A stretch of DNA of 25,527 nt, taken from IMG/VR virus record IMGVR_UViG_3300010357_000632, one strand, 5' to 3'. This stretch comes from a virus. Positions 2,454 through 25,330 of this stretch are shown here, piece after piece. Numbering within the stretch: the stretch's first letter is position 1; every line of letters starts with the position of its first letter. The notes under the pieces were generated by a model. The model made no database searches, was not told the DNA's origin, and saw only the letters and a program-made list of their open reading frames with translations. The position numbers and the translations under genes were made by a program.

Positions 2454-3631
2454 ACGATCTGTTTGGCGGCGGTTATGCCGCTGACCTCGATTCTTAGAAC
2501 GTTGTGTTGACTAACTGATATGTTCAGTCCGGTTTTGGTCATATAGACGTTGCTGGATATGGCAAAACTGTCCACGGCGGACCCTTTGGCTGCACCAATG
2601 GCATGCTTATAAAGAGTGCAGGTGATCGAGCTTGACACGCGGCCAACTTCCCAGACATCGGCCCTGGTGATCTTGCAAGCGATGGGGGCTGCAAATTCAT
2701 GAACAGCGGCCTCAATAACATCCGATCCGTTCCCAAAAGGAAAGTCGATCTCAAAGTTCCTGGTAATCCACGAACCATCTCCCTTGAGGGCCTGGGCCGT
2801 GTTTGGATATTTCTGCATCAGGCCATGCTTTGTGGTGGAGGCGTTGAGGTCGGTGTTGTCATCGCCTGCCGCAAGATCATCGATCTTGATGGCGTCCGCT
2901 CCACCGGATGCATGCCGGGCAGCATGAGCTAGCTGAGCATACCGGGCATCTCCTCGGGCCTGGTTGTAATAGATTGAGTGATCGTCATCTGTTCTGCCCC
3001 CCAGGCTACCATGATCTATCTGGGCACCATCTCCACCTGAATGGTCGTGAGAATCGCCGTTGGTGACTCCTTTGGCGGCTGGTGCACATTCCGCCAGAAC
3101 ATCCCTCACCGCCTTCTCGGAGGCGGGCATGGCGTCCGTGCCTGGTGTCCCTATGGAGGTTGCCAGATCGCCCACCCCCCCAGCGAACATCCAGATGTAT
3201 TCGGATGTGATGGCTGTGCATTCTGCCGGTATCCAGATGGCTCCTATAATGGCTCCGGGTGGGATAGAAGAGGGGGGCAGAGGAGAGGTATAGCTCTTCC
3301 AGTCGCTCAGCCCCTTGGGGTCCTCGATCGTCGCTGGTGTGCCTTTAGCTATCTGGGCAGCCCCAGCTACATCTCTGTAAATTATATCAATCCTGGGTAA
3401 CGTAGCATGCGCGGCATCGTGGGTTACGGTATCCTCTACCACGTCGGATGGTGTTCCGGCTATCTTAATCCTACCGGCACCGATCGTCACCACCATATCT
3501 GCCGGGGTCGATGCGGTCAGCCGGTTGCCATTGACAACCCCGGTTTCCCGGCTGGCTCTCGACACGGCCTCGATGTGGCTAGTCAGGATTGTTTGGTTTA
3601 CTACTGGTGATAAAAAATCAGTGTCGGTCAA
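2426..3631 (-). CDS. Tail fibre-like protein (401 aa)
   Basis: N-terminal attachment-like domain (HATLPRIDII), fibre motifs HDHSGGDGAQIDH and HAARHASGGADAI, and a C-terminal beta domain. Confidence 0.6.
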   Translation of the reverse strand: MTDTDFLSPVVNQTILTSHIEAVSRASRETGVVNGNRLTASTPADMVVTIGAGRIKIAGTPSDVVEDTVTHDAAHATLPRIDIIYRDVAGAAQIAKGTPATIEDPKGLSDWKSYTSPLPPSSIPPGAIIGAIWIPAECTAITSEYIWMFAGGVGDLATSIGTPGTDAMPASEKAVRDVLAECAPAAKGVTNGDSHDHSGGDGAQIDHGSLGGRTDDDHSIYYNQARGDARYAQLAHAARHASGGADAIKIDDLAAGDDNTDLNASTTKHGLMQKYPNTAQALKGDGSWITRNFEIDFPFGNGSDVIEAAVHEFAAPIACKITRADVWEVGRVSSSITCTLYKHAIGAAKGSAVDSFAISSNVYMTKTGLNISVSQHNVLRIEVSGITAAKQIVCRLFCEAT

Positions 3632-3646
3632 GATTAACCACCCACA

Positions 3647-3877
3647 TTAAAATAATCCGAAAGCGGCAGCAGCCAAACCGACCAGGGTTACCACGACGGC
3701 AGACGCGATATACACAGACATCTTAAATCCTTCAAGGCATCCGATGCGCTTTTCGTGGTCACCTAGCTGGTTACAATGGGCGTCCAGCTTCTTCTCTATC
3801 CGTTCGTCTCGTTCGTCCATACGGTGTGTCCGCTCATCAACACGGGCCAACATAGTTTCTACCGTATCGGCTGGCAT
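3647..3877 (-). CDS. Small coiled-coil protein with C-terminal transmembrane helix (lysis-cassette type)
   Basis: LARVDERTHRMDERDERIEKKL...RIGCLE followed by hydrophobic VYIASAVVVTLVGLAAAAFGLF. Confidence 0.7.
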   Translation of the reverse strand: MPADTVETMLARVDERTHRMDERDERIEKKLDAHCNQLGDHEKRIGCLEGFKMSVYIASAVVVTLVGLAAAAFGLF

Positions 3878-4474: not shown

Positions 4475-4753
4475 TTACACTCCTCCACATCTTAACGGTA
4501 TTTTCTTAGTTACGTTACCCGGCACGCCTTCCCCATTGTCAGCCAGGAAGGCATTGATACTGGGGGTCCATCCAGCACCACCAGCATCGGACACCACCCA
4601 TCCGGTGCCGTCCCCCGCGAATATTGCCTCGATCTCAGACATATTGAGGCCGCTGAGGTCCTTGACGGCAGGGCTGGTGTATTGTACGTAGTCTGCGGAT
4701 GCTACCCCCACAATCGCTATGAAGGCGATCATTGTAAGTAAAATTGCGTTCAT
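4475..4753 (-). CDS. Small secreted protein with signal peptide
   Basis: MNAILLTMIAFIAIVGVASA-D signal peptide; two N-x-S/T sequons; GGAG RBS. Confidence 0.7.
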   Translation of the reverse strand: MNAILLTMIAFIAIVGVASADYVQYTSPAVKDLSGLNMSEIEAIFAGDGTGWVVSDAGGAGWTPSINAFLADNGEGVPGNVTKKIPLRCGGV

Positions 4754-5091
4754 CGTGTGTCTCCTTGTGTCGGAAACTTTCCCAGGCTCCCGACTGCCTG
4801 ATCTTTCTCGCTGTTCCAGCCCAAGACCGCTATCTTCTGCTTACACATACGGTCCCAGACCGGCACTGGGTTGTAGCCGAAGCGTTTCTCCCATTGTTTC
4901 TCTGTCCACTGCTGACCGGCCCCATCGATATAAACGATAGTACCATCGGGATATCGCAGCTTGCCGTTGGGAATCCTCTTCAGCTCCTCCGGAGTCTTAC
5001 AGAAGCTTGCAAACTCCTCGTCGGTAAGCCCCTCCCCTGGCAGGCAGCAAGCCTCTTCCTTCTTTGGGGCCTTCTTAAATTGGTGTACCAT
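4750..5091 (-). CDS. Hypothetical protein (113 aa)
   Basis: GAGGT RBS; 4-bp overlap with the next gene; no family recognised. Confidence 0.7.
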   Translation of the reverse strand: MVHQFKKAPKKEEACCLPGEGLTDEEFASFCKTPEELKRIPNGKLRYPDGTIVYIDGAGQQWTEKQWEKRFGYNPVPVWDRMCKQKIAVLGWNSEKDQAVGSLGKFPTQGDTR

Positions 5092-13795: not shown

Positions 13796-14848
13796 TCAGG
13801 CTACCACGTTCTTCATGAACATGCCTGCAGTTTTGGCCATTACCACCGGGCACCAGCACTGGAAGCCCTGGTAATAGGTTGTGTGGGTGTGCAGGTCGGG
13901 GACCTGAGAGAGGGCGGTATCGAATCCACCCAGAGGTTCGTTGAAGGACAGGTTCATGCCCGCTAGGGTAGTCAGAGGTCCGGGGGAGGTCACGTATCCC
14001 AGCCAGATGTGCTTACCGAATATCCAGTCAAGCGCGACAGTATCACCGGGAGCGGCGGTGTTGTACATGGCTTTAGCCACCAGAACGTTATCGATGTCCA
14101 GAGCCTGAGCTATCATCTGCTCGTTCAGCTTGGTGGGGACCTTGTCAGCACCCTGTGGGTTCCTGTAGAGACTGATCAGCTGGTTGTTGATCCTCAGCTC
14201 CTCGTATGCCTGCTCCCCTATGACCATGGTGTTGGGCAGGAGACCGCATGCCTTCTTAATGGCCAGCTTGCTGTCCTTGAATACGCCCAGGGGGTCAGAG
14301 TCTGCATCATTGAACTGCCTGATAGTCTCGCCTGTGGTGATCTCTCCAGGAGTCCAGGTCTCACCGCTGCCAGTTCCAGTGACATCGATTCCCCAAACAG
14401 ACTCCTTGAAGTAGCTGTTGGCGATGACCAGCTCCTTATTCAACTGGAGCACGTCAGTAACCATGTTGGTTGTCGCCTGCTCGATGGGGTAGCCCTGGTC
14501 GGCCACAAAGGGGATGTCGGCCATGAGGGGCATTTCGAAGGCATACCGTCGGCACACATACGAGCCGGGGGTATCTACCTTGAGTTCTCCCTGGGGCGGG
14601 ATGCTGCCGGGTCTCCACTCACCTGCCTTGTTGGTAAAGTGATTCTCCATAGCCCACTTGGGATAGAGACCGGCTATCTGGTTCACCGATATCATGGGGA
14701 ACCATTTATCAGCCACGAAGTTTGTGGGTTCCTGCCTGTAGGCGAGAGACCACTCCGATTCCAGCCGGGCTACGTGGATCTGTGAATAGTCCAGGCCCTT
14801 GTTAACCACCTGCTGGGCCAGGGATGCTATAGTTTCTTTGTAATCCAT
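13796..14848 (-). CDS. Major capsid protein (HK97 fold)
   Basis: 350 aa; IHV...AY.Q...FVAD..FP.ISV N-terminus and PNTMVIG...YEEL..N motif; position after scaffold and cement genes; GAGGTGA RBS. Confidence 0.9.
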   Translation of the reverse strand: MDYKETIASLAQQVVNKGLDYSQIHVARLESEWSLAYRQEPTNFVADKWFPMISVNQIAGLYPKWAMENHFTNKAGEWRPGSIPPQGELKVDTPGSYVCRRYAFEMPLMADIPFVADQGYPIEQATTNMVTDVLQLNKELVIANSYFKESVWGIDVTGTGSGETWTPGEITTGETIRQFNDADSDPLGVFKDSKLAIKKACGLLPNTMVIGEQAYEELRINNQLISLYRNPQGADKVPTKLNEQMIAQALDIDNVLVAKAMYNTAAPGDTVALDWIFGKHIWLGYVTSPGPLTTLAGMNLSFNEPLGGFDTALSQVPDLHTHTTYYQGFQCWCPVVMAKTAGMFMKNVVA

Positions 14849-14859
14849 GAATCATCACC

Positions 14860-15279
14860 TCAAATGTTCGCCTGGTACGTGAACAGTCTCACGGTAGCCG
14901 GGAGCCCCGCAGCAGCAGCGACTTCGCACTGTCCCACGATGATATCCTTGTTGGTGGGCGTGGCCTTGTCGCCGACACCACCAGTACCGACCTTCACCAG
15001 GTCACCTACTGCCAGACCCGCGCTCCCTGCCTTGACCAGTGCTTTACCTCTCCACTGGACCAGCGCGGTGATTGAGAAGTTGGTGGAAGTCGCGGTTTCC
15101 GTAGGCCTGTTGCACAGGACGCCTACCGGATGGCCGCTTGTGAATGCCTGTACTGTCCGGGCTCTTGTGGTGTCCAGCTGGACGAAACAGTACTCCAGAG
15201 CAGACATGTCACCGTCCGGATTGTAGGGGCTAATGTCTCCTGGAAGAGCTTCCCTGAAGGGGGCTGTCATGTCAGTCAC
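14860..15279 (-). CDS. Capsid cement/decoration protein (DUF2190-like)
   Basis: 139 aa directly upstream of the MCP; PVGVLCN, GKALVKAG...LAVGDLV and IVGQCEVAAAAG motifs. Confidence 0.7.
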   Translation of the reverse strand: MTDMTAPFREALPGDISPYNPDGDMSALEYCFVQLDTTRARTVQAFTSGHPVGVLCNRPTETATSTNFSITALVQWRGKALVKAGSAGLAVGDLVKVGTGGVGDKATPTNKDIIVGQCEVAAAAGLPATVRLFTYQANI

Positions 15280-15280
15280 T

Positions 15281-15931
15281 TCAGATCACCCCCATCTGAG
15301 CGCGCACAGTACCTGCCCTCTCCTCGGCCAACACGGACTTAGCCAGAGCGCCATTCTCGCGAGTGGCTGCGGCTACCGCCAGAGCATGGCGAACCTTGGG
15401 ATCTGTGGGGCCGCTACCGGACTTCTGGATTAGGCTCTCGTGCTTGGTTACCAGGGCTTCGAACTCGGCCATAGAGGTCCCAGGTGCGGGCCTGTCGCTA
15501 CCCATCGGATGATAGAGCAGCTTACCGGCCTCGGCCTTCATTACGCTGGCCTGCTTGAGGGTCTTCAAGATAGTCTTCCGGGCCTCGGTCGGCAGAGCTT
15601 CCAGGCTCTTCAGGATCTCAGCACCCTCTTCAGGAGTCCCCAGGCCGGAGAAATCGGACTTGGCTATCTGCTCATACTCCTTCTTGCGGAGGATAGAGCG
15701 CAGCTCCTCGTTCTCCTTGCGGATCGGTTCGACTGCTTTCTGGACGATATCCAGCAGCTCAGCCTTGCTGACCAGAGCCCTAGCTCCGGCCTTGTCAGCC
15801 CTAGCGGGCTTGGTCTTTCTCATCGGTACACTTCCATTAGCTGATTTATATAATAAGAAACGCTTCCCATTAGCCGCTTTACCGACTAGGGAAACCTCAT
15901 CCAGTTCTAAATCCGTAAGTTCGTTTGGCAA
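15281..15931 (-). CDS. Capsid scaffolding protein
   Basis: TTG start with GAGGTGA RBS; N-terminal L.DLE.DEVSLV.K.AN...FLL.K motif; helical; lies between the protease and capsid genes. Confidence 0.65.
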   Translation of the reverse strand: MPNELTDLELDEVSLVGKAANGKRFLLYKSANGSVPMRKTKPARADKAGARALVSKAELLDIVQKAVEPIRKENEELRSILRKKEYEQIAKSDFSGLGTPEEGAEILKSLEALPTEARKTILKTLKQASVMKAEAGKLLYHPMGSDRPAPGTSMAEFEALVTKHESLIQKSGSGPTDPKVRHALAVAAATRENGALAKSVLAEERAGTVRAQMGVI

Positions 15932-15963
15932 TTAGAATCACCTCGGGTCATCAAGAAAAGATT

Positions 15964-16929
15964 TCAGAAGGGGGTGCGTGTGCCGGTCCCTGCGATGGAG
16001 AAGCCGGTTATCTCGCCTTTCTTCACGGCCTGCCAGAGAGAGGGGTCGTGGATCTTTACCGCCATTACCCAGCTTCCTTTTCTGACCTTTTGGCCGTTGC
16101 ACTTGAAGTTGGTTGGGGCGATATAGCTCTCGATGATACTGGCTTTGGCGGGCCCGGAGTGCTCCTTGCCGATCCTCTGGCTGGTCTGCATGAACTTGTG
16201 ACATGCCTTCCTGATCTCGGACTCGCTCAGTCGGTCGCCCTGAAGATCGATTACCCCAGGTTCACTAACGACTCCATAGCAGATCTGCTGGTCTGCGGCC
16301 TTGGAGACAATGATAGGCACCCGGTAGGACTTCATGACCTTGCTTACTTCGTCCTCGTCTTCCTCATCCTCATCATCTTCCTTCAGGAACTCGGGGAGGT
16401 CTTCATCCTCTTCATCTTCGTCCTCTTCAGGCTCTTCGTCCTCGGCCTTCTCTGCCTCATGCTCTGCCAGGACTTCGCGGATGTCGTCTATGAGGTCACT
16501 GGTAGCCTCCTCTTCGGGCTCAGTTTCATCACCGAAAAGATCCTCTTCAGATATGCCGTCGTCTGGGTCAGCATCGGCCTCGATCTGCTCTTCTTCGCCT
16601 TCATCGGGGTCTGGTGTGTCCTCGGGCTCAGGCTCGTCTGATCCGCCCTCGTCCTGCATCTCAAGCCACTGCTCAAGTGCTGCCTTGTGCTTGGATTCGT
16701 CTTGTTTGATGGCTTCCGCCATTTCTTTGAGCTGTGGGTCAGTGGCCATCTCGATCAGCTGGTCGATTTCATCTATGCCTTCGCCTTCACCGGCCAGTAT
16801 GGCGCGAACGCGATCTAAATCGGAGCCTTTCTCCAGCTCCTCGTCTTCTATATATTCTTCTTCATCCATAGAATTACCTTCTAATCGGGGAACGTGGATG
16901 TCTCCGAAATCGATACCTTTGTTAATCAT
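15964..16929 (-). CDS. XkdF-like putative prohead serine protease with extended N-terminus (capsid-arm copy, ferritin-like hairpin, acidic linker)
   Basis: C-terminal QQICYGVVSEPGVIDLQGD...EIRKACHKFM...IGKEH...IIESYIAP...KGSWVMAVKI.D..LW..VKKGEITGFSIAG is the XkdF signature. A second possible start lies at 16869 (GAAGGT upstream). Confidence 0.85.
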   Translation of the reverse strand: MINKGIDFGDIHVPRLEGNSMDEEEYIEDEELEKGSDLDRVRAILAGEGEGIDEIDQLIEMATDPQLKEMAEAIKQDESKHKAALEQWLEMQDEGGSDEPEPEDTPDPDEGEEEQIEADADPDDGISEEDLFGDETEPEEEATSDLIDDIREVLAEHEAEKAEDEEPEEDEDEEDEDLPEFLKEDDEDEEDEDEVSKVMKSYRVPIIVSKAADQQICYGVVSEPGVIDLQGDRLSESEIRKACHKFMQTSQRIGKEHSGPAKASIIESYIAPTNFKCNGQKVRKGSWVMAVKIHDPSLWQAVKKGEITGFSIAGTGTRTPF

Positions 16930-16943
16930 GAGAACACCGATAG

Positions 16944-16974
16944 ATATATATACTAATACGTACTAGTATGTATT
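16944..16974 (+). promoter_or_regulatory. TATA box followed by a palindromic operator
   Basis: ATATATATA at 16944-16952; AATACGTACTAGTATGTATT at 16955-16974 is an 18/20 palindrome; GGTGA RBS precedes the ATG at 16986. Confidence 0.7.
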
Positions 16975-16985
16975 GGTGAAGTGAA

Positions 16986-17480
16986 ATGAACACGAACGAC
17001 CTAATATCTCAAGTCACGGAATGTAGAAGCGAACGATGGCAGAACAGTGATATCAGCAGAGGCGGGGAGAGGCTGCTGGAGATCCTGGCTGCCCATATGC
17101 AGGAATGTGAAGAATGCAGAGACGCATTCGACGCGGAAGAGTATGAAGAAGATACACTCATAGACCTCTGGCATCGCTACATGTGCCAGACAGAGGATAT
17201 CTCCGAATGGATTTGCGAGGAAGGGCTTCAGGCCCTCTTCGACCATCCTTTAGACGTTTTCGTGATTGTCCCCGCCCAGGAGGGGGTTGTGGGATATCCC
17301 AGATTCGTGATCGAACTCTCCGAGCCTGCCCTGGAGTATGAGGTCGAAAAAAGATGGCCCGGCGCTGAAATGGGCGATTTCGAACTCTGCGAAGAACCGG
17401 AGGCATCGGAGGATGAGTATGTAATGATGGTCACTGTTGGTGGTGAGACCGTGGCCCGCGTCTACACCCAGGAGGCTTGA
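16986..17480 (+). CDS. Highly acidic protein with C-x23-H-x3-C-x2-C motif; function unknown
   Basis: Only substantial plus-strand ORF with no competing minus-strand gene; own promoter and RBS; about 41 D/E versus about 10 K/R in 164 aa. Confidence 0.85.
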   Translation: MNTNDLISQVTECRSERWQNSDISRGGERLLEILAAHMQECEECRDAFDAEEYEEDTLIDLWHRYMCQTEDISEWICEEGLQALFDHPLDVFVIVPAQEGVVGYPRFVIELSEPALEYEVEKRWPGAEMGDFELCEEPEASEDEYVMMVTVGGETVARVYTQEA

Positions 17481-17481
17481 A

Positions 17482-17616
17482 ATGGTTTTCGTGAAGAAAA
17501 CCATTACCATCCGGCAAGACCAGGATGTGTGGATCAAAGAGCATCCCAAGATCAATCTCTCTGGCCAGATCCAACACTGGCTAGATAACCTCATAGACGC
17601 ATATGAGCAACACTAA
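17482..17616 (+). CDS. Ribbon-helix-helix DNA-binding protein (44 aa, below the ORF-track cutoff)
   Basis: Translated by hand: MVFVKKTITIRQDQDVWIKEHPKINLSGQIQHWLDNLIDAYEQH. GGAGG RBS at 17471; alternating beta-strand KKTITI, then a helix, then NLS..I...L. Confidence 0.75.
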   Translation: MVFVKKTITIRQDQDVWIKEHPKINLSGQIQHWLDNLIDAYEQH

Positions 17617-18818
17617 TATGTGTGGAACCTCTTCTTTGATTTGGTTCCATCCGGATGGGCATACTCTACCACGATATCGGTACTGCACTCCCCATGTTCG
17701 CTGTCGCACGGGGAAGACCATCGCCGAATCTCCGTTTTTTCGCCCGTGGACCGCGCTTGGTCGAATGCTTTGGCCTCTTGTGCTGCCCTTTTATCAGCAT
17801 GTGCCTTGTCGCGGGCCGCTTGCTCCCCCTCAGCCGCATCGATGATCTCCTTGAGCTTCTCGTGCGGTATTTCGTACCACCTATAACCACCCGCGTCCGG
17901 GGCACGTTTGCTGCTGTTCAACATGGCCTGCCATATCTGTGTGTGATATCTCTCGATCTTGGCTTTCATGTCCTGCAGATCGGGCCGGAACTCGGTTCCA
18001 ACTTCCTTAGGATGATAGACCGGCATGCCATCGTCGGTCCAGCGCCACGTCTTGACCTGGACTTTGGCAGCATCGTCTTTTAGCCCCTGAATGTTTCTCT
18101 TGTCCTCTTCTTTGATGTGGGTGATGGCTTCGGGTGGTAAGGTTAAGAAAACGTCTTGCTTTCCCTTTCCAAGAAGTTTTCCTATATTGCTATATCTCGA
18201 AAAGTTGACGCCGGACTTGCCTTGTTTCACTCCGACATCTGACGCGCTAAACTTAGCATCTACCGAAATTGGCCTGGTGATCTTTATTGCGAACGTTGAC
18301 CGGCTCACGCCATTGTGGTGAGACGTTCCGTCGAGTGTGATCTCTACGTCCTTATTGGCGTCGGAGAACTTCTTGGTTTCGGGTGTCTGTGTTTGTTCAG
18401 GTTTCCCCTCCCCCTCCGGCTTCTTTGTGGGCTCCGGCTGCTTCTCAGGTTCTGGCTTCTTCTCGGGCTCTTTTGGCTTGCTCGTGTTCAGCCATCCGAT
18501 CTTGTCCAATGCGCTGCCACCACTCAAGAGTGTCTGGATAGCACCGGACACTCGTCCCTGGCTGGCTGCTTCCGCACGCCTTTCCAGCTTCCTCTTCGTC
18601 TTGGATGGCTTCTTGGAGCCGCCTCCTGAGCCCGACGTGAACTTGCCATCGTCTGCACGGGGGTGCTTGGATTCCTCCCAATCGCCCGCTTTCTTGAGTC
18701 GGTGATTGGTGCCGCCGAGAAATATAGAGCCGTCCGGGGCTACGTGGTGCCGCCTAGCCTCTTCGAACCAATCAAGATTCCGGAGGATAGACTTGAGGAT
18801 GGGTATGCGCATGATCAT
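17613..18818 (-). CDS. Putative head-associated cargo protein with WEESKHPR..GKF motif
   Basis: GAGGT RBS; MIMRIPILKS leader; DWEESKHPRADDGKFTSGSGGG; P/E/K-rich linker; C-terminal domain of unknown function. Confidence 0.8.
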   Translation of the reverse strand: MIMRIPILKSILRNLDWFEEARRHHVAPDGSIFLGGTNHRLKKAGDWEESKHPRADDGKFTSGSGGGSKKPSKTKRKLERRAEAASQGRVSGAIQTLLSGGSALDKIGWLNTSKPKEPEKKPEPEKQPEPTKKPEGEGKPEQTQTPETKKFSDANKDVEITLDGTSHHNGVSRSTFAIKITRPISVDAKFSASDVGVKQGKSGVNFSRYSNIGKLLGKGKQDVFLTLPPEAITHIKEEDKRNIQGLKDDAAKVQVKTWRWTDDGMPVYHPKEVGTEFRPDLQDMKAKIERYHTQIWQAMLNSSKRAPDAGGYRWYEIPHEKLKEIIDAAEGEQAARDKAHADKRAAQEAKAFDQARSTGEKTEIRRWSSPCDSEHGECSTDIVVEYAHPDGTKSKKRFHTY

Positions 18819-18954: not shown

Positions 18955-19920
18955 TCAGGTCGATCCAGGATAATCAATTGGCAATAAGTGGTGAATGCAA
19001 TTCGGATGCAGGAGGCCCTGTGAAATGGCAGTATCAAGAGCAGGATACTCTTTCGACTTTCCCGAGATAGATACAATCTTCCCGGCCCACTCGCGGCATA
19101 CGTCGCAGGTGTTCGGCCTGATCTCACGAGAAATCAAGACCAGATCCTCTTTCTGCTCGACTGCCCGGTTGATTGATCCTTCGTTAAATGAGTTCCTAGC
19201 AGCTGTGATCGCCACCATCTGAATGTAATCTGCGATCCCCAGCTCTTTTCCGTCTATCGTCTTGTGACCTATGATCCTGCCTTTCAGGCCTGTATAGTCA
19301 GCCTTCTTGTTAGCCAGCGCTGCCTGTGCCCGTCTCTTCTCCGATTCGGCTATGACCTCTTCTATGTGTCTGGAGAGCTGAGCATCCACTTCCCGGAAGC
19401 GGTTCATCTCCTGAGTGGCCATGGCCTGAGCAGCTTTAGCATGCGGCCCCTGTAGTGACCCAGCACGAGATCCCGCCAGGTACAGACCTGGGATGGAAGT
19501 TCCCAGCCAGGAGGCGGCATTCACCAACAGCTCTCGCCTGATCCGGTCTGTGAGGGCCCTCAGCCTGTCCGGGTTATCGAGGTTCTGGTCGATGGCCGCC
19601 TTGATCGCCTTCTCGCCTCGCTTGTAGAGCAGAGCGATGATAGCAGCGGTCTCTTTGATCCTCTTCCGGGGGTCCTTCTCTTTCTCGGAGGCTCGGACAG
19701 CCTTCTCGATCTCTGACAGAGGGAGCTGGGATAGAAGGAAGGTCTCTGGTCTGCCGGCAGCACGCCAGAGCTTGCGCTTCAAGTCTGGCAGGTCATAGCC
19801 CAGAGCTCGAGCTCTGCGCCAGAACGATGGGGTGAGCAGGTCGTATCTGGCTTGATCGGTGAGGTCCCCATCCGACAAGTAGCCGGTTGCTCGGATCAGA
19901 GAGAGAAGTTCGGAGTTCAT
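18955..19920 (-). CDS. Phage minor capsid / head morphogenesis protein (MuF / minor capsid 2-like)
   Basis: C-terminal TCDVCREWAGKIVSISG...YP.L...GLLHPNCIH motif; position after the portal. Confidence 0.85.
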   Translation of the reverse strand: MNSELLSLIRATGYLSDGDLTDQARYDLLTPSFWRRARALGYDLPDLKRKLWRAAGRPETFLLSQLPLSEIEKAVRASEKEKDPRKRIKETAAIIALLYKRGEKAIKAAIDQNLDNPDRLRALTDRIRRELLVNAASWLGTSIPGLYLAGSRAGSLQGPHAKAAQAMATQEMNRFREVDAQLSRHIEEVIAESEKRRAQAALANKKADYTGLKGRIIGHKTIDGKELGIADYIQMVAITAARNSFNEGSINRAVEQKEDLVLISREIRPNTCDVCREWAGKIVSISGKSKEYPALDTAISQGLLHPNCIHHLLPIDYPGST

Positions 19921-20477: not shown

Positions 20478-20731
20478 GTTTCCCTCCGATTATTCAGAAA
20501 TCCTCTGAAGTTGTAGTATTCGTATCCCACCAGGAACAATAGAGCCTGGGGGACGTCGCCTGTCTGGTAAAAACCAATACCGATCATTCCGTTGCTGATC
20601 ATCCAGACAGCGAACCCTATCTTCCGGGTGCGTCTGGTCGCGCTGGACACCAGCCGGGCACCCAGGAGCGATAGAACGACGATCAGCCAGGGGTAGAGAC
20701 TATCGACCGGATGGAGCAAATTCTGCACCAC
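20474..20731 (-). CDS. Small membrane protein, short PnuC-like pattern
   Basis: Three hydrophobic segments with W..V.LSLLGA.L...K.GF..W.ISN...G...QA.LF; overlaps the portal end by 32 bp. Confidence 0.55.
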   Translation of the reverse strand: MVQNLLHPVDSLYPWLIVVLSLLGARLVSSATRRTRKIGFAVWMISNGMIGIGFYQTGDVPQALLFLVGYEYYNFRGFLNNRRET

Positions 20732-22208
20732 CCAATATCGCGTCTATTGCGCTCTGGCCATCGAGCAGGCTCTCTATCGGGCTGTCGCCGTGCTCCTGCA
20801 GAGCGTCGTTCGTCTCCTGCTCCACATAGTTTGGCAAGCCCAGGTTGTCGATGATGGTGTCCCGTATTCCCTTCTGCTGTGATAGATCCCAACCAGCTTT
20901 CTCGAAGAGACTCAGGATAGCCACCACATCCTGGGTGGCTATGGGGACAATAGGATCATAGACGATCCTGGGCATGGGTGTACCCTTCTCGAACTCGAAA
21001 TGTGGGTTGAGGGCGAATAGCCGTCTGACTGCTTGGTTGTTGATCGACTCCTGGAAGCTCTGCAAGTTGGCTTCGACTGCTAGCGTGAAGTTGTCCGTCT
21101 TATCCCTGCTGAGAGCAAGACTGCCAGTTCCTCCCATCCCGAGCGCCAGGAACTCTGTGAACGTGCTCATGAGCACCGCTTTTGCCTCAGCCTCGATCGA
21201 GCTGGTTATGTGGTTGACGATATCGCCGTTTGTGGACGGCTGTAGAAACCCTATCTTGATGGTGGGGTTCCCGTTCTGATCCCAGACCTGGGGGGTAATC
21301 AGCCAGTGCTGCTCCTGCATGGATATGCTCTCAAGGCTTTCCTTGATGCTGATGTAAGATCCGTATGCTTCTTGTGCTACTGGATCGTCAGGATTGGCCG
21401 CAAGCAACGCCGGAGCACTGGCTATGTTGGCCGGAACCTCAGCCCACGGTATTCCCGCACCTCCTCTCTCTATAATTATATTTCTATAATCTTCAAGATA
21501 CTTCTTAGTCCTCCAAGATCGCCAGGCAGATCGCAGGACTGACCGGCCTTCTGGTGAGTCCTTGCCGGGGTCTGATCTGAGGAGGAGGATCTTCTGGATA
21601 GGGATAAATGTGGTTTTGTAGTCTGGTGCTGCCAGCTGGGTAAATCCCAATAGACGGGTTACGTCCTGGGGGTCGTAGTCCCAATGAAAAACGCTGTCAG
21701 GAGCACGGTAAGCCAGGTTGGACCATCCTATGAGGCCGTCATCGTACTGCGAGGACATCCGTTCATCTTCGTGATCTCCGGCTCGTTCCTTGTAGACGAT
21801 CTCCAGGGGGAGGAATCCGTACTGTGGCACCGCACGGGCTGCGGTGGCGATGATAGTCTGCCAGCTGTGGGCCATGTCAGCCATGCATTCCTGCAGGAAC
21901 TCCGCAGAGCCATTATCCTTGTTGGCGTCGTCTACCGCATCCACCTTCCAGTGGGCGCGGCGGATGAAGACTGCGAAGGCGCTGAGGGCGGCACCCACGA
22001 AGGCGTCATTATCACCCATCTCGGTGTAGGTGCGAAATAGAGCCTGACCCTGCAGCTGCGGGAGGAAGTCGCGTTTGATCCACCCCGGCATGAAGTACTG
22101 CAATCCTGAGCGCCCGTACTGCTGGCCAGCGAGCGCCCTTGGGCTCTGGATAAATTTCGGGTAGATGCCGCCGTTGGGGGCTGCTGGGGGCTGGGGGGAT
22201 TGTGGCAT
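20700..22208 (-). CDS. Portal protein (DUF935-like)
   Basis: 502 aa after terL; YGRSGL, Y.EM..ND..VGA, YGF...EIVYK, PEGRSVLRSAWRSW..K and ALG...TGS.ALS motifs. Confidence 0.9.
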   Translation of the reverse strand: MPQSPQPPAAPNGGIYPKFIQSPRALAGQQYGRSGLQYFMPGWIKRDFLPQLQGQALFRTYTEMGDNDAFVGAALSAFAVFIRRAHWKVDAVDDANKDNGSAEFLQECMADMAHSWQTIIATAARAVPQYGFLPLEIVYKERAGDHEDERMSSQYDDGLIGWSNLAYRAPDSVFHWDYDPQDVTRLLGFTQLAAPDYKTTFIPIQKILLLRSDPGKDSPEGRSVLRSAWRSWRTKKYLEDYRNIIIERGGAGIPWAEVPANIASAPALLAANPDDPVAQEAYGSYISIKESLESISMQEQHWLITPQVWDQNGNPTIKIGFLQPSTNGDIVNHITSSIEAEAKAVLMSTFTEFLALGMGGTGSLALSRDKTDNFTLAVEANLQSFQESINNQAVRRLFALNPHFEFEKGTPMPRIVYDPIVPIATQDVVAILSLFEKAGWDLSQQKGIRDTIIDNLGLPNYVEQETNDALQEHGDSPIESLLDGQSAIDAILGGAEFAPSGR

Positions 22209-22567: not shown

Positions 22568-24058
22568 CTACTTCCAAGGGGGCACTCGTTTGCCTCCGGT
22601 GAGTGTGAGCTTGGGCATCACAAAGGTATTCACCGGCGCAAATGTGAGCATGACAGCGTCGGCTCTGTCCGGGCTATGCCCGAGACGCTTCTTTGTCTCT
22701 TCTTTGTCCTCGATCTGGATCTGGCCTTTTCCCGTGATCTTGTAGATAGGAGCTGCCAAGTCTCCGAGGAGGTCGTCGTCTGGTGGTAGTGCTAAAGGTT
22801 CGGGATTCTTCGGGTCCAATGATTCACGGAGAGCCCACCAGAGCTCGGCCCGGAGATTAAGATAGACCTTGTTGCCATCGTCATCTACCACATCCGAAGC
22901 GGACCCGACATTAACAGGAATAACAGGAGCTTTCGCGGCTTTCAGAGGATCGACCACGCCAGCGCCCAGACCTATCACATCCACCTTGATGTGCTTGGCG
23001 TTGATTTTCCTAGCAGCCACCAGGACCTCGCCTGTGACCTCCTGGGTGTCTTTGCCCGACATCACCTGAAGAGGATAGACTTTCATGCCCTGGCGGGGCG
23101 CTATAACGCTCAGATCGGAGCCGTAACGGGCTACATCGACCCCCAGCTCATACGAACCCTCGCCCTTGGTGTCTTCCCACCGAGCCATTGATGCTTCTAT
23201 CCATGCCAATGGGATGACGTTGTTCTCACCCTGTGTTGGGAAGTTGCCTGCTACCCTGGCCTGATATGCAGGATGGTTCTTGCCCCAGCGGGTTAGCTTG
23301 TCTGCTGCCCAGGTGGGCGTGATGAGGTACGGTGCGGGCCAATTGTACGATCCATCTGGGTTTTTGGCCGCTTTCTCTTTCCAAGCCCCAGACTCCAGGT
23401 CATCCTCAGTAATCCCAAACGCTGTGAAGTTTGGAGTGTCCCAGGCGGCGATATGGAACCGGGACCATCCCGGCTCCCGATGAGAGCGGTAGAATGTGCC
23501 GCCGATCAGCGTTGGGTTTCCTAATAGCAATAATCTGCAATGACCTGACGTGACAACGCCCTCGATGGCCTCGAAAATGTCCTCTTTTACGCCCGCCGCT
23601 TCGTCTACTATAACTAAGAGATGCGGCGCATGGAACCCCTGGAACCTGTCGGGTTGGTTGGTTGACAACCCCAATGCTACCCATTCATCCTGCACTATCT
23701 GAAGCTCGGGGCTCTTTTTCGCCAGCTCTCCACCCAATAAGATCTTGGACTTGCGGACACTCGACCTAACCTCTTTCCAGATCAGCTTTTCGACCTGGCG
23801 GAAGGTTGGTGCTGTGGTGAGTACTATAGAATAAGGAAACGTGTAAAGGAACCATAGCGTGGCGTTGCCTGCCAGATGGGATTTGCCTATGCCGTGACAA
23901 GACCGTGCTGTGGTGCGCTCGTTGTCCCTGATGGACTCAACTATATCTTTCTGAGCCGACCAGAATTTAGTACCCAGCGCACGATTGATCCACCACACCG
24001 GATCTGCTGGGGCGCGGGCTTTCAGCTCCTTGCGCTGTTCCTTCGTGAGTGGTATCAA
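22568..24058 (-). CDS. terL: Terminase large subunit
   Basis: Walker A (RSCHGIGKS), Walker B (LLVIVDEAAG), nuclease motifs LGVDVARYGSD and RLGHSPDRADA; TTG start. Confidence 0.95.
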   Translation of the reverse strand: MIPLTKEQRKELKARAPADPVWWINRALGTKFWSAQKDIVESIRDNERTTARSCHGIGKSHLAGNATLWFLYTFPYSIVLTTAPTFRQVEKLIWKEVRSSVRKSKILLGGELAKKSPELQIVQDEWVALGLSTNQPDRFQGFHAPHLLVIVDEAAGVKEDIFEAIEGVVTSGHCRLLLLGNPTLIGGTFYRSHREPGWSRFHIAAWDTPNFTAFGITEDDLESGAWKEKAAKNPDGSYNWPAPYLITPTWAADKLTRWGKNHPAYQARVAGNFPTQGENNVIPLAWIEASMARWEDTKGEGSYELGVDVARYGSDLSVIAPRQGMKVYPLQVMSGKDTQEVTGEVLVAARKINAKHIKVDVIGLGAGVVDPLKAAKAPVIPVNVGSASDVVDDDGNKVYLNLRAELWWALRESLDPKNPEPLALPPDDDLLGDLAAPIYKITGKGQIQIEDKEETKKRLGHSPDRADAVMLTFAPVNTFVMPKLTLTGGKRVPPWK

Positions 24059-24592
24059 TCATCCAGCCTCATCTTCTAGCATCAGGTCAACCCATGATTG
24101 CATGGCTCCGGCCTTTTTGCTGCTACCATCTTCGCCCAACAACTCCTGTTTGGTCTTCAAGACCTGCCTGATCTCTGCTGCACAACCTGTATAGAGAGAG
24201 ACGTAAGCCATTGGGAGCTTGGGCAGATCAGCCGGGCCCCCAACGTCTTCCAAGTCCGCGAGCCGGTTGGTGATGATCCTCTCCAGCTTTTGGTGGAGAG
24301 CGTGCTTCCCAGCTACCATCTGATCCAATACCTCGATCTCTGACAGTCTGGCCTCGGCGTCCACCTGCATGTTTGCCTGGCTTTCGGCGTACTGCTCAGA
24401 GGCTACGTCTGCGACATTGTAGTGTTCATCGAAATGATTATCGAGGGCTCGATAGCTTATCTTCTCACCCATTTCCTTCAGCCGGGCGGAGATTACACGA
24501 GAGCTGTCACCGTCTTTGGAGTGCCACTGCTCGATCTGAGTTCTCAGCGGCGAATTGCAGGCTTTACAGCGAGATGAGTATCCGGCGGGCAT
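24059..24592 (-). CDS. Probable terminase small subunit (N-terminal CxxC, helical)
   Basis: Abuts terL; RCKAC...IE.W.......SR.IS..L.....IS..AL.NH...H DNA-binding-like N-terminus and helical C-terminus. Confidence 0.65.
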   Translation of the reverse strand: MPAGYSSRCKACNSPLRTQIEQWHSKDGDSSRVISARLKEMGEKISYRALDNHFDEHYNVADVASEQYAESQANMQVDAEARLSEIEVLDQMVAGKHALHQKLERIITNRLADLEDVGGPADLPKLPMAYVSLYTGCAAEIRQVLKTKQELLGEDGSSKKAGAMQSWVDLMLEDEAG

Positions 24593-24597
24593 GGTGG

Positions 24598-24641
24598 GAA
24601 GGTTGCGAAGGCTATTGCGTAGCTTATGAAGGTTGCGAAGG
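24598..24641. repeat. Two 14-bp direct repeats, 30-bp period
   Basis: GAAGGTTGCGAAGG at 24598-24611 and 24628-24641. Confidence 0.9.
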
Positions 24642-24644
24642 TCG

Positions 24645-24657
24645 TTATACTATAAAG
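24645..24657 (-). promoter_or_regulatory. Putative TATA box of the packaging/structural operon
   Basis: Minus strand CTTTATAGTATAA, about 55 nt upstream of the terS ATG. Confidence 0.55.
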
Positions 24658-24665
24658 TGGCTGGT

Positions 24666-24708
24666 CGGTGGCCAGGGAAAGGAGGGATCGAGGAAGCCCC
24701 GGCCACCG
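24666..24708 (-). terminator. GC-rich hairpin, possible terminator of the upstream small-ORF cluster
   Basis: CGGTGGCC(A)GGG / CCC(C)GGCCACCG inverted repeat just after the stop at 24720; pyrimidine-rich loop on the minus strand. Confidence 0.4.
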
Positions 24709-24719
24709 GGTTGGGATGA

Positions 24720-24860
24720 TCATCTTGGTGCCAGAAAACCTCTTTTCGGAGAGGCTGCCCTGAGCGCCTTCTCGACCCGGATGGCTTCCTCGACGAAATC
24801 CAGATCGTGGTTGCTCCATTCCTGGATGCACCTCCAGTCTATATCGCAGCGTCGCGGCAT
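24720..24860 (-). CDS. Small hypothetical protein (46 aa)
   Basis: MPRRCDIDWRCIQEW...; GAGAGGA upstream of 24860. Confidence 0.4.
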   Translation of the reverse strand: MPRRCDIDWRCIQEWSNHDLDFVEEAIRVEKALRAASPKRGFLAPR

Positions 24861-24977
24861 AGCAAAGTTCCTCTCAGAGCAATAACAAGGAGCCCTCGTT
24901 GGCCGTTGAAGGCCCGAGGGCCAGCGTAGTCCTTTTTCCGCCAGGCCAATGAGGCGGTGCATGGGATGATTAGGATA

Positions 24978-25133
24978 TTACGGGCGAAGCCATCCACCCA
25001 GGATCAACAGCAGCCGGTCGAACTCCGCCGTGCTGCCTTCGAAGTGGAGGCCCTGGCCGGTGACTGTGATAGCCGGGAGCTGGTCGGCGTTGCCGTCTTC
25101 CCACAAATCCAAGTCGATTATTCTGTCTGGCAT
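24978..25133 (-). CDS. Small hypothetical protein (51 aa)
   Basis: Translated by hand: MPDRIIDLDLWEDGNADQLPAITVTGQGLHFEGSTAEFDRLLLILGGWLRP; GAGGT RBS. Confidence 0.55.
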   Translation of the reverse strand: MPDRIIDLDLWEDGNADQLPAITVTGQGLHFEGSTAEFDRLLLILGGWLRP

Positions 25134-25252
25134 GCTACCTCGTGCTTACGGAACCGGAAAACTTCGTCAGGCTCGTCGTCGAACAGATACGGAAAATTTG
25201 GATAATAAAGTGCCTTACGATACGGCTTTTTGCGTTTTTTGATGAAAGACAT
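25118..25252 (-). CDS. Small basic hypothetical protein (44 aa)
   Basis: Translated by hand: MSFIKKRKKPYRKALYYPNFPYLFDDEPDEVFRFRKHEVACQTE; no clear RBS. Confidence 0.3.
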   Translation of the reverse strand: MSFIKKRKKPYRKALYYPNFPYLFDDEPDEVFRFRKHEVACQTE

Positions 25253-25330
25253 TGGAAATCACTGGGAGAAAGCTTACGCAAAAGAAGACGGAGATCTGCC
25301 GTCCAAATAACTTTATGAAGCTTCTCCTAT

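Follow-up and report, generated by a model that had tools for sequence, protein, structure and literature searches.

A putative self-regulated accessory cassette on the opposite strand of the head operon of a methanogen virus

The subject of this report is a small two-gene cassette in the genome of a head-tailed virus of methanogens, the IMG/VR record IMGVR_UViG_3300010357_000632. The whole stretch of DNA that was analysed, 25,527 nucleotides (nt) long, is here called the window. The cassette sits on the plus strand within a morphogenesis block of minus-strand genes, between those for a 401-amino-acid (aa) protein and for the prohead protease. Its first gene encodes an acidic protein of 164 aa, the payload. 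The second encodes a protein of 44 aa, predicted to be a repressor of the ribbon-helix-helix (RHH) type and named RHH44 in the following. A spacer of 56 nt separates the cassette from the divergent protease gene. The open reading frame (ORF) of RHH44 starts one base past the TGA of the payload gene, and its own stop overlaps that of the converging 401-aa gene. At these converging gene ends, no T-run terminator is visible on either strand. The positions of the TATA box, a palindrome and both ORFs, as well as the 4-bp overlap of the stops, had been given in a first-pass annotation of the letters and were all confirmed (Table 1).

The base composition implies that the plus strand is really coding there: a plus-strand purine skew, with GC and AT skews inverted, is sustained only over positions 16900-17600, where it amounts to +0.08 to +0.19, while the mean of the window is -0.07. 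The first-pass annotation had called the cassette the only plus-strand unit in 25 kb. It is indeed the only clear one within the morphogenesis block; at about 24.4-25.3 kb, however, the skew is weakly positive as well. In this part (24373-25300), which lies beyond the start of the structural operon, plus-strand ORFs are also seen, e.g., one of 170 aa at 24373-24885, and the right end of the window may hold further plus-strand genes.

Table 1. The cassette, its control elements and its surroundings. Positions are those of the window unless a related locus (L number) is named.
Feature	Position	Strand	Remarks
ACCGAT element	16936-16941	plus	3 nt 5' of TATA box, proximal to the B recognition element (BRE); invariant in 8 of 8 RHH-linked promoters
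TATA box TATATATAC	16945-16953	plus	sole exact copy in the window
Operator, two overlapping 18/20 palindromes	16950-16976	plus	16950-16969 and 16955-16974; between TATA box and predicted start
GGTGA, Shine-Dalgarno-like leader	16975-16979	plus	6 nt 5' of ATG; within conserved leader GGTGAA(A/G)TG
Payload gene, 164 aa	16986-17480	plus	residues 1-80 encoded by 16986-17225
AGGAGG, ribosome-binding site of 44-aa gene	17470-17475	plus	within the last payload codons; GGAGG or GGGGG there in relatives
Gene of predicted RHH-type repressor, 44 aa	17482-17616	plus	strand KKTITIR, helix 1, PKINLSG turn, helix 2
Converging stops sharing 4 nt	17613-17616	both	TAA of 44-aa gene 17614-17616; stop of 401-aa gene 17613-17615, minus
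401-aa protein, family-less	17613-18818	minus	3' of MuF-type gene; isoelectric point 9.33
MuF/SPP1-gp7-type minor head protein	18955-19920	minus	morphogenesis block
Mu-type portal	20700-22208	minus	morphogenesis block
Large terminase	22568-24058	minus	head-tail morphogenesis block
XkdF-type prohead protease	15964-16929	minus	Pfam PF14550, E value 9e-33
Scaffold, cement and major capsid protein	13796-15931	minus	morphogenesis block
IS200/IS605 neighbours in related loci	L010 9891-10952; L018 1-501; L043 3144-3581; L013 1067-1516; L020 2319-3437; L048 1263-2668

The promoter has the features of a strong archaeal one. A G at -6 and an A at -3, counted from the start of the TATA box, can be read from the sequence, and these two bases are the rule for strong BREs (PMC11065993). 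The TATA box TATATATAC is invariant 5' of the homologues of the 164-aa gene at the five loci compared, and in related loci other small early-type genes have it as their TATA box, too. According to the alignment, the full conserved promoter-operator comprises 42 nt and reads ACCGAT-N3-TATATATAC-TAATACGTACTAGTATGTATTGG. The leader GGTGAA(A/G)TG is kept in the promoter alignment of the relatives and in 15 metagenome contigs. Its GGTGA presumably matches the 3' end of 16S rRNA.

The operator consists of inverted repeats. One of its palindromes, AATACGTACTAGTATGTATT, matches in 9 of 10 pairs; the second lies 5 nt leftward, and both extend to a dyad of 24 nt (16953-16976), in which 10 of 12 pairs match. 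In the 25.5 kb of the window, three 20-mers with such an 18/20 symmetry were observed, as against 0.8 expected, and shuffling of the 56-nt spacer produced one in 30 of 20,000 shuffles. The remaining 20-nt palindrome of this quality, CCCAGAGCTCGAGCTCTGCG at 19799-19818, is located in the MuF-type gene, towards its 5' end.

The operator goes with the RHH gene. When 335 kb of fetched loci were scanned for it, with up to 4 mismatches allowed, it was found confined to the promoters of eight lineages that have a homologue of RHH44 as the last gene of the operon; operator and RHH44 co-occur in 8 of 8 lineages. The 42 nt are kept in the window and in L009, L049, L007, L018, L010, L047 and L043. In two of these the payload is a different one: L047 has, behind the same promoter-operator, a first gene for a 253-aa protein, followed by genes for 84 and 245 aa, and L043 starts with an unrelated 104-aa protein. 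At the loci where a 164-aa homologue occurs without an RHH gene (L001, L005, L017, L020), by contrast, the sequence past TATATATAC is lineage-specific. The promoter-operator therefore belongs to the RHH gene, not to the 164-aa gene. It also changes slowly. It is 83-93% identical between the lineages, whereas the synonymous sites of the adjacent RHH gene differ by 32-80%, which means that it evolves 3-6 times slower than these.

A degenerate operator pattern was also scanned over the IMG/VR and JGI metagenomes and yielded 18 contigs. The identical 20-mer plus leader (GGTGAAATGTG-ATG) here heads at least eight unrelated small first genes. Behind the operator we find the 164-aa family, the 104-aa protein, a Cys-rich one of 127 aa, one of 78 aa, an acidic one of 95 aa, a further one of 95 aa starting with MYKL, two different 45-aa proteins and the 253-aa protein of L047. 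Whether other genes occupy the place next to this RHH in related viruses had been proposed as a check at the outset; they do. The longer contigs contain two operators each, which bracket an operon ending in a gene for an RHH-like protein of 49-56 aa. This protein, with the sequence ..ATVTFRPDQFAxVRRLQDxRKLSEVCQKAVDEE, aligns in register with KTITIRQDQ..NLSGQIQHWLD of RHH44, and a strand T-x-T-x-R-x-DQ is common to both. An earlier idea that the operator is exclusive to RHH44 operons had to be dropped, since contigs with this divergent RHH-like type carry it too. By its pattern, the operator would extend to a regulon of small operons.

RHH44 has homologues in eight lineages, and its 44-aa ORF recurs behind the 164-aa gene in several of them. 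It is under purifying selection, the ratio of non-synonymous to synonymous substitution rates (dN/dS) being 0.05-0.30. For its homodimer a structure was predicted with an ipSAE of 0.75, as compared to 0.00 for the best control; among proteins with solved structures, 20 of 30 pairs attain the mark set for this score, but only 1 of 23 single chains does. Three runs share 100% of the contacts, and the predicted local distance difference test (pLDDT) of the partner is 91 or higher. By the predicted contacts 10-4, 9-4, 8-6, 7-7, 8-8 and 4-11, residues 3-11 form an antiparallel ribbon, and helix 2 packs on helix 1 of the partner, as is the topology of RHH proteins. All 44 residues are taken up by this fold in the dimer model; there is no C-terminal extension of the kind that binds a toxin. 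The nearest neighbours in a protein language model are RHH_1, RHH_3 and RHH_12 at 0.84-0.88, which is below the threshold of 0.9 for a lead and can only serve as such. The label RHH, which the first-pass annotation had attached to the 44-aa protein, thus rests on predicted dimer contacts and on the language-model lead, and not on any significant sequence match in Pfam, PHROGs or the Protein Data Bank (PDB). The good dimer score may reflect likeness to the abundant solved RHH dimers and is not to be taken as proof. With this reservation, the 44-aa protein is predicted to be a dimeric repressor of the RHH type. A 9-bp hairpin at 17482-17504, which would hide the RHH start codon, was considered as a conserved control element and discarded: it is present in the window and in L018 only and absent from L007, L010 and L049.

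The cassette is an accessory. About a dozen contigs in IMG/VR encode a MuF-type protein 90-100% and a protease 87-97% identical to those of the window, yet have neither the 164-aa nor the RHH44 gene. A relative binned to a Methanothrix metagenome-assembled genome, with a major capsid protein 76% identical to that of the window, is likewise free of the cassette and also of the 401-aa gene. The nearest virus record, G001, ends at about position 15933 of the window, short of the slot. That the acidic protein might turn out to be a conserved virion or replication protein had been named as the finding that would speak against an anti-defence module; with its absence from the slot in about a dozen close relatives, it is no such protein.

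The slot can be filled differently. L031 (1632-2340, minus strand) and L033 (5176-5900) have another opposite-strand cassette at the same place, with genes for an acidic 96-aa protein, a 90-aa protein and, in the last position, a 50-aa RHH-like protein. In L031 its stop overlaps that of the cargo gene, as the counterpart of the 401-aa gene is called here, by 4 nt, as it does in the window. The promoter of this cassette is related to that of the window and contains a 10-nt direct repeat (TATATGCTAT) in two copies, at a distance of 21 nt. A homologue of its 96-aa gene is also found in L039.

Even the same kind of cassette exchanges its payload. L009 has flanks with 95-100% identity to those of the window, the RHH is identical, and so is the promoter except for a few leader bases before the ATG. 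The payload (3260-3745), however, shows 65% aa identity and 47-73% DNA identity only, with breakpoints near 16980 and 17440, and its synonymous sites are saturated relative to the window. Identical flanks and saturated synonymous sites imply that an allele was replaced and that the gene did not evolve fast in place. Two further variants stem from an independent study. Its RNA-library contigs show positions 16929-18457 replaced by 894 other letters; there are also contigs that diverge from the window at 16980 and join it again at 17577. Behind the same promoter, these have a further payload: the divergent sequence includes ATGTACAAACTC.. and shares the opening MYKL with the first gene of L065. 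The libraries were not strand-specific and may contain DNA; they were used only as proof of the variants, not of expression.

Outside the slot, homologues of the 164-aa gene adjoin integrases (L001, L007) or early and replication genes (L005, L018); in L017, the homologue is placed between terminase and tail genes. At this last locus (4498-5000), which has no RHH44, the homologue and a neighbouring 48-aa gene each have ATAGGATA repeats just 3' of their TATA boxes, which hints that in this lineage the same payload is under another regulator, specific to it. The anti-restriction protein ArdA is encoded in L020 (7106-7576) and L021 (5934-6404) five genes 3' of a 48% identical homologue, among small genes of the same strand. 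This proximity is a weak association with anti-defence. In six unrelated contexts (Table 1), genes of the IS200/IS605 type (Y1 transposase, TnpB) are found within one or two genes of the cassette or of genes related to the N-terminal part of the payload, and they may account for the mobility of the cassette.

The payload itself is extremely acidic: 41 of its residues (25.0%) are D or E, its net charge is -31 and its isoelectric point 4.05. It has 13 relatives in a set of 5.8 billion proteins; in a collection of species-representative genomes a homologue is absent, and a blastn search of the region against GenBank phages gave chance matches in jumbo phages only. None of the 164-aa, 44-aa and 401-aa proteins has a usable match in Pfam, PHROGs, NCBIfam or PADLOC, and a feature search of the 164-aa protein in the ESM Atlas also produced nothing usable. 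In the full-length model (pLDDT 75), residues 1-80 form a four-helix domain and residues 81-164 a beta-rich one. The model of the four-helix N-domain is confident, with a pLDDT of 93.4 and a predicted template modelling score of 0.83.

The N-domain has a family of its own. An exhaustive profile search detected relatives in 83 representative clusters, most of which share residues 1-79 only. The domain occurs either as a stand-alone protein of about 77 aa, which ends directly after W-x-C, or fused to varied C-termini. In 65 sequences, H37, C41 and C44 (H-x3-C-x2-C) are invariant, and W18, S21, F48, W75 and C77 are nearly so. We consider the N-domain a putative zinc-stabilised, or possibly redox-sensitive, protein-binding module. 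Whatever the fate of the functional assignment, a by-product of this work is a widespread unannotated helical domain of 77 aa with an H/C/C/C signature, a confident model and no known fold. Of its fusion partners, one is a helix-turn-helix (HTH) of the sigma-70 region-4 type (P0100). Such a fusion, 302 aa long, heads a block in L015 (2586-8714) and L016 with genes for a PAPS-reductase/DUF3440 protein, a ParB-like protein, Csf1 and Csf3; the block resembles type IV CRISPR-Cas, also holds a second PAPS-reductase-like gene and has an nSTAND3 gene upstream. The C-terminus of P0022 looked AbrB-like by eye, and without Pfam support this impression was not used. A reading of the N-domain as a sulfhydryl oxidase of the Erv1/ALR type was rejected as well: the domain ends after W-x-C77, before the helices that bind flavin adenine dinucleotide (FAD). 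Weak Evr1_Alr matches are given by 5 of the 65 relatives, with an alignment that goes no further than W-x-C. The H-N-x-V-N-type motif, which we take to be typical of these FAD-binding helices, is not present after W-x-C in the 164-aa protein.

How can all this be interpreted? In our opinion, the cassette is a moron-type accessory operon, placed on the opposite strand between a MuF-associated cargo gene and the prohead protease gene of a head-tailed virus of methanogens. Methanothrix is its likely host, on weak evidence. The first-pass annotation had proposed an independently promoted, self-regulated unit of two genes, similar to those of anti-CRISPR (Acr) and anti-CRISPR-associated (Aca) proteins, and the comparative data, i.e., the linkage of operator and RHH and the variety of first genes, support this proposal. 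The self-regulated, Aca-like architecture we hold to be highly probable. For this architecture together with an accessory, non-structural role of the payload, we estimate a probability of about 60%. That the role consists of anti-defence is a tentative idea and the smaller part of our confidence goes to it.

The cassette might work as follows. The strong archaeal promoter (ACCGAT-N3-TATATATAC) would give rise to a bicistronic mRNA. Its first gene provides a swappable payload, in the present case the acidic 164-aa protein with its zinc-type N-domain, and its last gene the 44-aa RHH protein. Judged from the comparative data, the latter would dimerise, bind the 20-24-nt dyad between TATA box and start and shut its own promoter after an initial burst. 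In the manner of an Aca repressor, it may also act in trans on other promoters that have the same operator. The payload, as a non-virion protein, would most likely bind a host or viral protein or act as a mimic, either at an early stage of infection or in lysogenic cells. Our first guess is that it serves counter-defence or the control of superinfection.

A number of observations weigh against this interpretation. The 164-aa gene is under ordinary purifying selection (dN/dS 0.07-0.20), and no diversifying selection is visible. Its product matches no known Acr, anti-defence, defence or regulator family in the general libraries searched, none of which was a dedicated anti-defence library. The fold does not match either, be it that of the full-length model or that of the N-domain, in searches with Foldseek against the PDB, with VIA-align in its wide mode, and in the ESM Atlas and BFVD. 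As to the repressor, five members of the RHH44 family were searched in Pfam with no match at E values up to 10; the best PHROG match has a non-significant E value of 0.086, and the profile search in the PDB gave irrelevant matches only. The relationship of RHH44 to the 49-aa RHH-like protein is weak, with an E value of 0.003 and a probability of 10% in hhalign. The conservation of the promoter-operator could partly be due to a recent spread of one recombination module. The plus-strand start is expected near 16972-16976 from the geometry of the TATA box alone, and the RNA-library contigs that cover the cassette lend no support to its expression, as they may result from carry-over of DNA.

The gene that converges with the cassette offers a different explanation of the payload. 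The N-terminus of the 401-aa protein (residues 1-113 to 1-174) is 73-100% identical in about 17 contigs of IMG/VR (L023-L041), while the C-terminal parts are unrelated. The homologous products comprise 324-518 aa, and their conserved part consists of a leader, an HPR..GKF motif and a linker rich in P, E and K. Homologues of the C-domain of the window also exist as stand-alone proteins of 253-254 aa in L047 and L048. A polymorphic capsid-cargo gene beside MuF in archaeal viruses is another by-product of this analysis. The 401-aa protein could be an effector delivered by the capsid, with a conserved part for packaging and a variable, toxin-like C-domain, and the 164-aa protein would then be its cognate neutraliser. 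Its own promoter would shield lysogens and virus-producing cells, and the copies next to integrases would provide orphan immunity against incoming virions.

There are facts that fit. The C-domain of the window, type A, and the cassette are found together in all head-slot lineages open to assessment (window, L009, L010, L049), a truncated remnant of it, 83% identical, accompanies the cassette in L018, and both are replaced as one unit (16929-18457) in the strain represented by the RNA contigs. L031 pairs another type of C-domain with another opposite-strand cassette. The charges are complementary, -31 for the payload and +12 for the cargo, and small ORFs for immunity are what usually comes after a MuF toxin gene (PMC5576092). 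However, adjacent pieces of DNA co-occur by linkage alone, and the pairing is not kept elsewhere: homologues of the 164-aa gene are found without the C-domain in L001-4, L005/6, L007/8, L017 and L020/21, and L047 and L048 have the stand-alone C-domain but no 164-aa gene. Although L009 has swapped its payload for the 65% allele, the C-terminus of its cargo is still 94% identical. The cargo variants in L024, L025, L030 and L035 have no small neighbouring gene at all. A toxin domain could not be recognised in any of the cargo variants, and the orientation is convergent instead of downstream on the same strand, as would be usual. We therefore regard immunity to the cargo as unlikely. The same holds for its generalisation, by which the slot would be a locus of virus-virus or virus-host conflict in viruses of methanogens, with swappable capsid-delivered effector domains and neutralisers under control of RHH proteins. 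The 164-aa zinc protein would there neutralise the type-A effector domain, and orphan copies would guard lysogens against incoming cargo. If true, archaeal viruses would have in it their first described system of polymorphic effectors and immunity; we would not bet on it.

No better are the prospects of the payload as a regulator, be it in the switch between lysis and lysogeny or in that between early and late genes. Its zinc-thiolate N-domain would in this case behave like a zinc-binding anti-sigma (ZAS) domain and sequester a transcription factor, or sense redox state or metal, instead of acting as an anti-defence effector. The idea arises from the invariant H-x3-C-x2-C, which is located at the junction of helices 2 and 3. 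In the profile search of the PDB, the ZAS motif of RsiW was the best match, with an E value of 0.0019 over 26 residues (Erv1 reached 0.12). The Pfam family zf-HC2 is matched by 3 of the 65 relatives, at best with an E value of 6e-4, and RsrA with 0.05. The fusion to a sigma-type HTH in P0100 and the homologues that directly adjoin integrases point in the same direction. All these matches are, however, limited to the metal motif and stay below the family cut-offs, and the 164-aa protein itself (P0001) has no Pfam match. Among the fold matches there is no anti-sigma chain; Foldseek found nothing, and the best Z score of the N-domain in VIA-align was 3.8. Archaea, moreover, have no sigma factors. 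Finally, close relatives do without the gene, and a part of a switch would hardly be swapped between nearly identical genomes. A role in regulation thus appears improbable.

Still less probable is that the proteins are secondary and that the main role of the cassette is antisense transcription, i.e., that its plus-strand transcript collides with that of the late head operon, which crosses positions 16930-17616. The 56-nt spacer leaves no room for a promoter of the protease: with a distance of about 25 nt to the TATA box, transcription of the minus strand would start only within the protease ORF, and L010 and L022 have its first 20 residues conserved. For these reasons, late transcripts probably cross the cassette. 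They would probably read through it in antisense direction and could cause interference. The 4-nt overlap of the converging genes, where a terminator is not in sight, fits the idea as well. A bidirectional TATA box shared with the late operon, as considered in the first-pass annotation, is unlikely: the conserved ACCGAT and purine-rich element, upstream of the TATA box on the plus strand, orients the promoter to this strand, and a minus start would fall into the conserved N-terminus of the protease. Against antisense as the main purpose stands the clear selection on both ORFs at the protein level. The promoter-operator is also used at loci that lack a late gene in convergent orientation (L007, L043, L047, L062), the cassette is missing from close relatives, and any interference may be a side effect that is limited by the repression through RHH.

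A toxin-antitoxin module was likewise among the first-pass proposals. A toxin-antitoxin pair of type II or an abortive-infection pair, in which the 164-aa protein would be the toxin and the RHH protein its antitoxin, or vice versa, is hardly credible: the tight coupling of two genes with an RHH autorepressor is reminiscent of RelBE- or ParDE-type systems, and clusters of VapB-type antitoxins are among the language-model neighbours of RHH44 (0.84), but the latter is a bare DNA-binding fold with no tail for a toxin, the payload gene comes first, each gene occurs without the other in several lineages (the 164-aa family without RHH in at least four, L001, L005, L017 and L020), the RHH with its operator serves at least eight unrelated first genes, toxin-family and PADLOC matches are missing, and the extreme acidity is atypical of type II toxins.

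Some features of the neighbouring protease may be added here. Its N-terminal half is very acidic and gives weak EncFtn-like and ferritin-like matches (E values 1e-3 to 4e-3). In a tblastn search, a match was seen between the first 17 residues of the protease and the N-terminal region of the L022 major capsid protein. The protease of L010 (6739-7944) is lengthened at its N-terminus by a basic stretch, which by eye resembles HNH.

What is the use of such a cassette for further work? Few genes for anti-defence or host takeover are known for viruses of methanogens, and guilt by association has so far had no bait there. The 20-24-nt operator, together with the TATA box and the small RHH gene, is such a bait: a single pattern scan retrieved at least eight unrelated payload families from metagenomes of digesters and sludge. 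If the RHH protein acts in an Aca-like manner, this catalogue would comprise testable candidates for counter-defence or superinfection genes directed to hosts of the Methanothrix or Methanosarcina type.

The cassette shares traits with several known systems. With the polymorphic toxin-immunity modules of MuF (PMC5576092), it has in common a MuF-adjacent gene with a conserved N-part and a polymorphic C-part, along with which the small neighbours change. In the window, however, MuF and cargo are separate genes with no recognisable toxin domain, and the cassette runs towards the cargo gene under a promoter of its own, includes an RHH and is also found independently of the cargo domain. The N-domain resembles the ZAS domain (zf-HC2; RsiW, RsrA) in being a small helical domain with an H-x3-C-x2-C metal motif at a junction of two helices. 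The match, however, is one of motif only; the fourth ligand is probably the C-terminal C77 and not an N-terminal residue, there is no fold match, and archaea offer no sigma factor as a partner.

RHH44 can be likened, by its type and not by sequence, to SvtR of SIRV1 and F55 of SSV1, which reportedly are small RHH dimers of archaeal viruses that repress viral promoters via repeats near TATA box or start. These two act on core genes of the virus or on its switch to lysogeny and thus differ from the regulator of a portable payload cassette. The morons of temperate phages (PMC3594210) are closer in genetic terms. Like these, the cassette is a unit with its own promoter that was added between genes of a late operon, is missing from close relatives, is spread horizontally and has a GC content slightly below that of its flanks. 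It differs from them in that a terminator was not seen, in its dedicated repressor with an operator that is shared by other operons, and in being archaeal.

The closest counterpart is the acr-aca operon. From bacteria, an Aca of the RHH type is known, Aca14 (bioRxiv 10.64898/2026.07.27.740549), and early anti-defence genes of archaeal viruses are marked by a shared strong promoter and flanking regulatory sequence (PMC11065993). Aca14 and RHH44 can be compared by architecture and by their RHH type, not by sequence. There are differences: the payloads of the cassette include no known Acr or anti-defence protein, its host is a methanogen instead of a bacterium or a member of the Sulfolobales, and in the window it resides on the opposite strand inside the head module and not in the early region. 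What the cassette shares with acr-aca operons, be it that of Aca14 or those of Aca8 and the archaeal early-promoter regulon, is the order of genes, with one or more small variable payloads first and a small DNA-binding autorepressor last; an inverted repeat that overlaps the core promoter; one and the same operator at the head of several neighbouring operons; a regulator that is conserved while the payloads differ; and a strong consensus of TATA box and BRE shared by small early genes.

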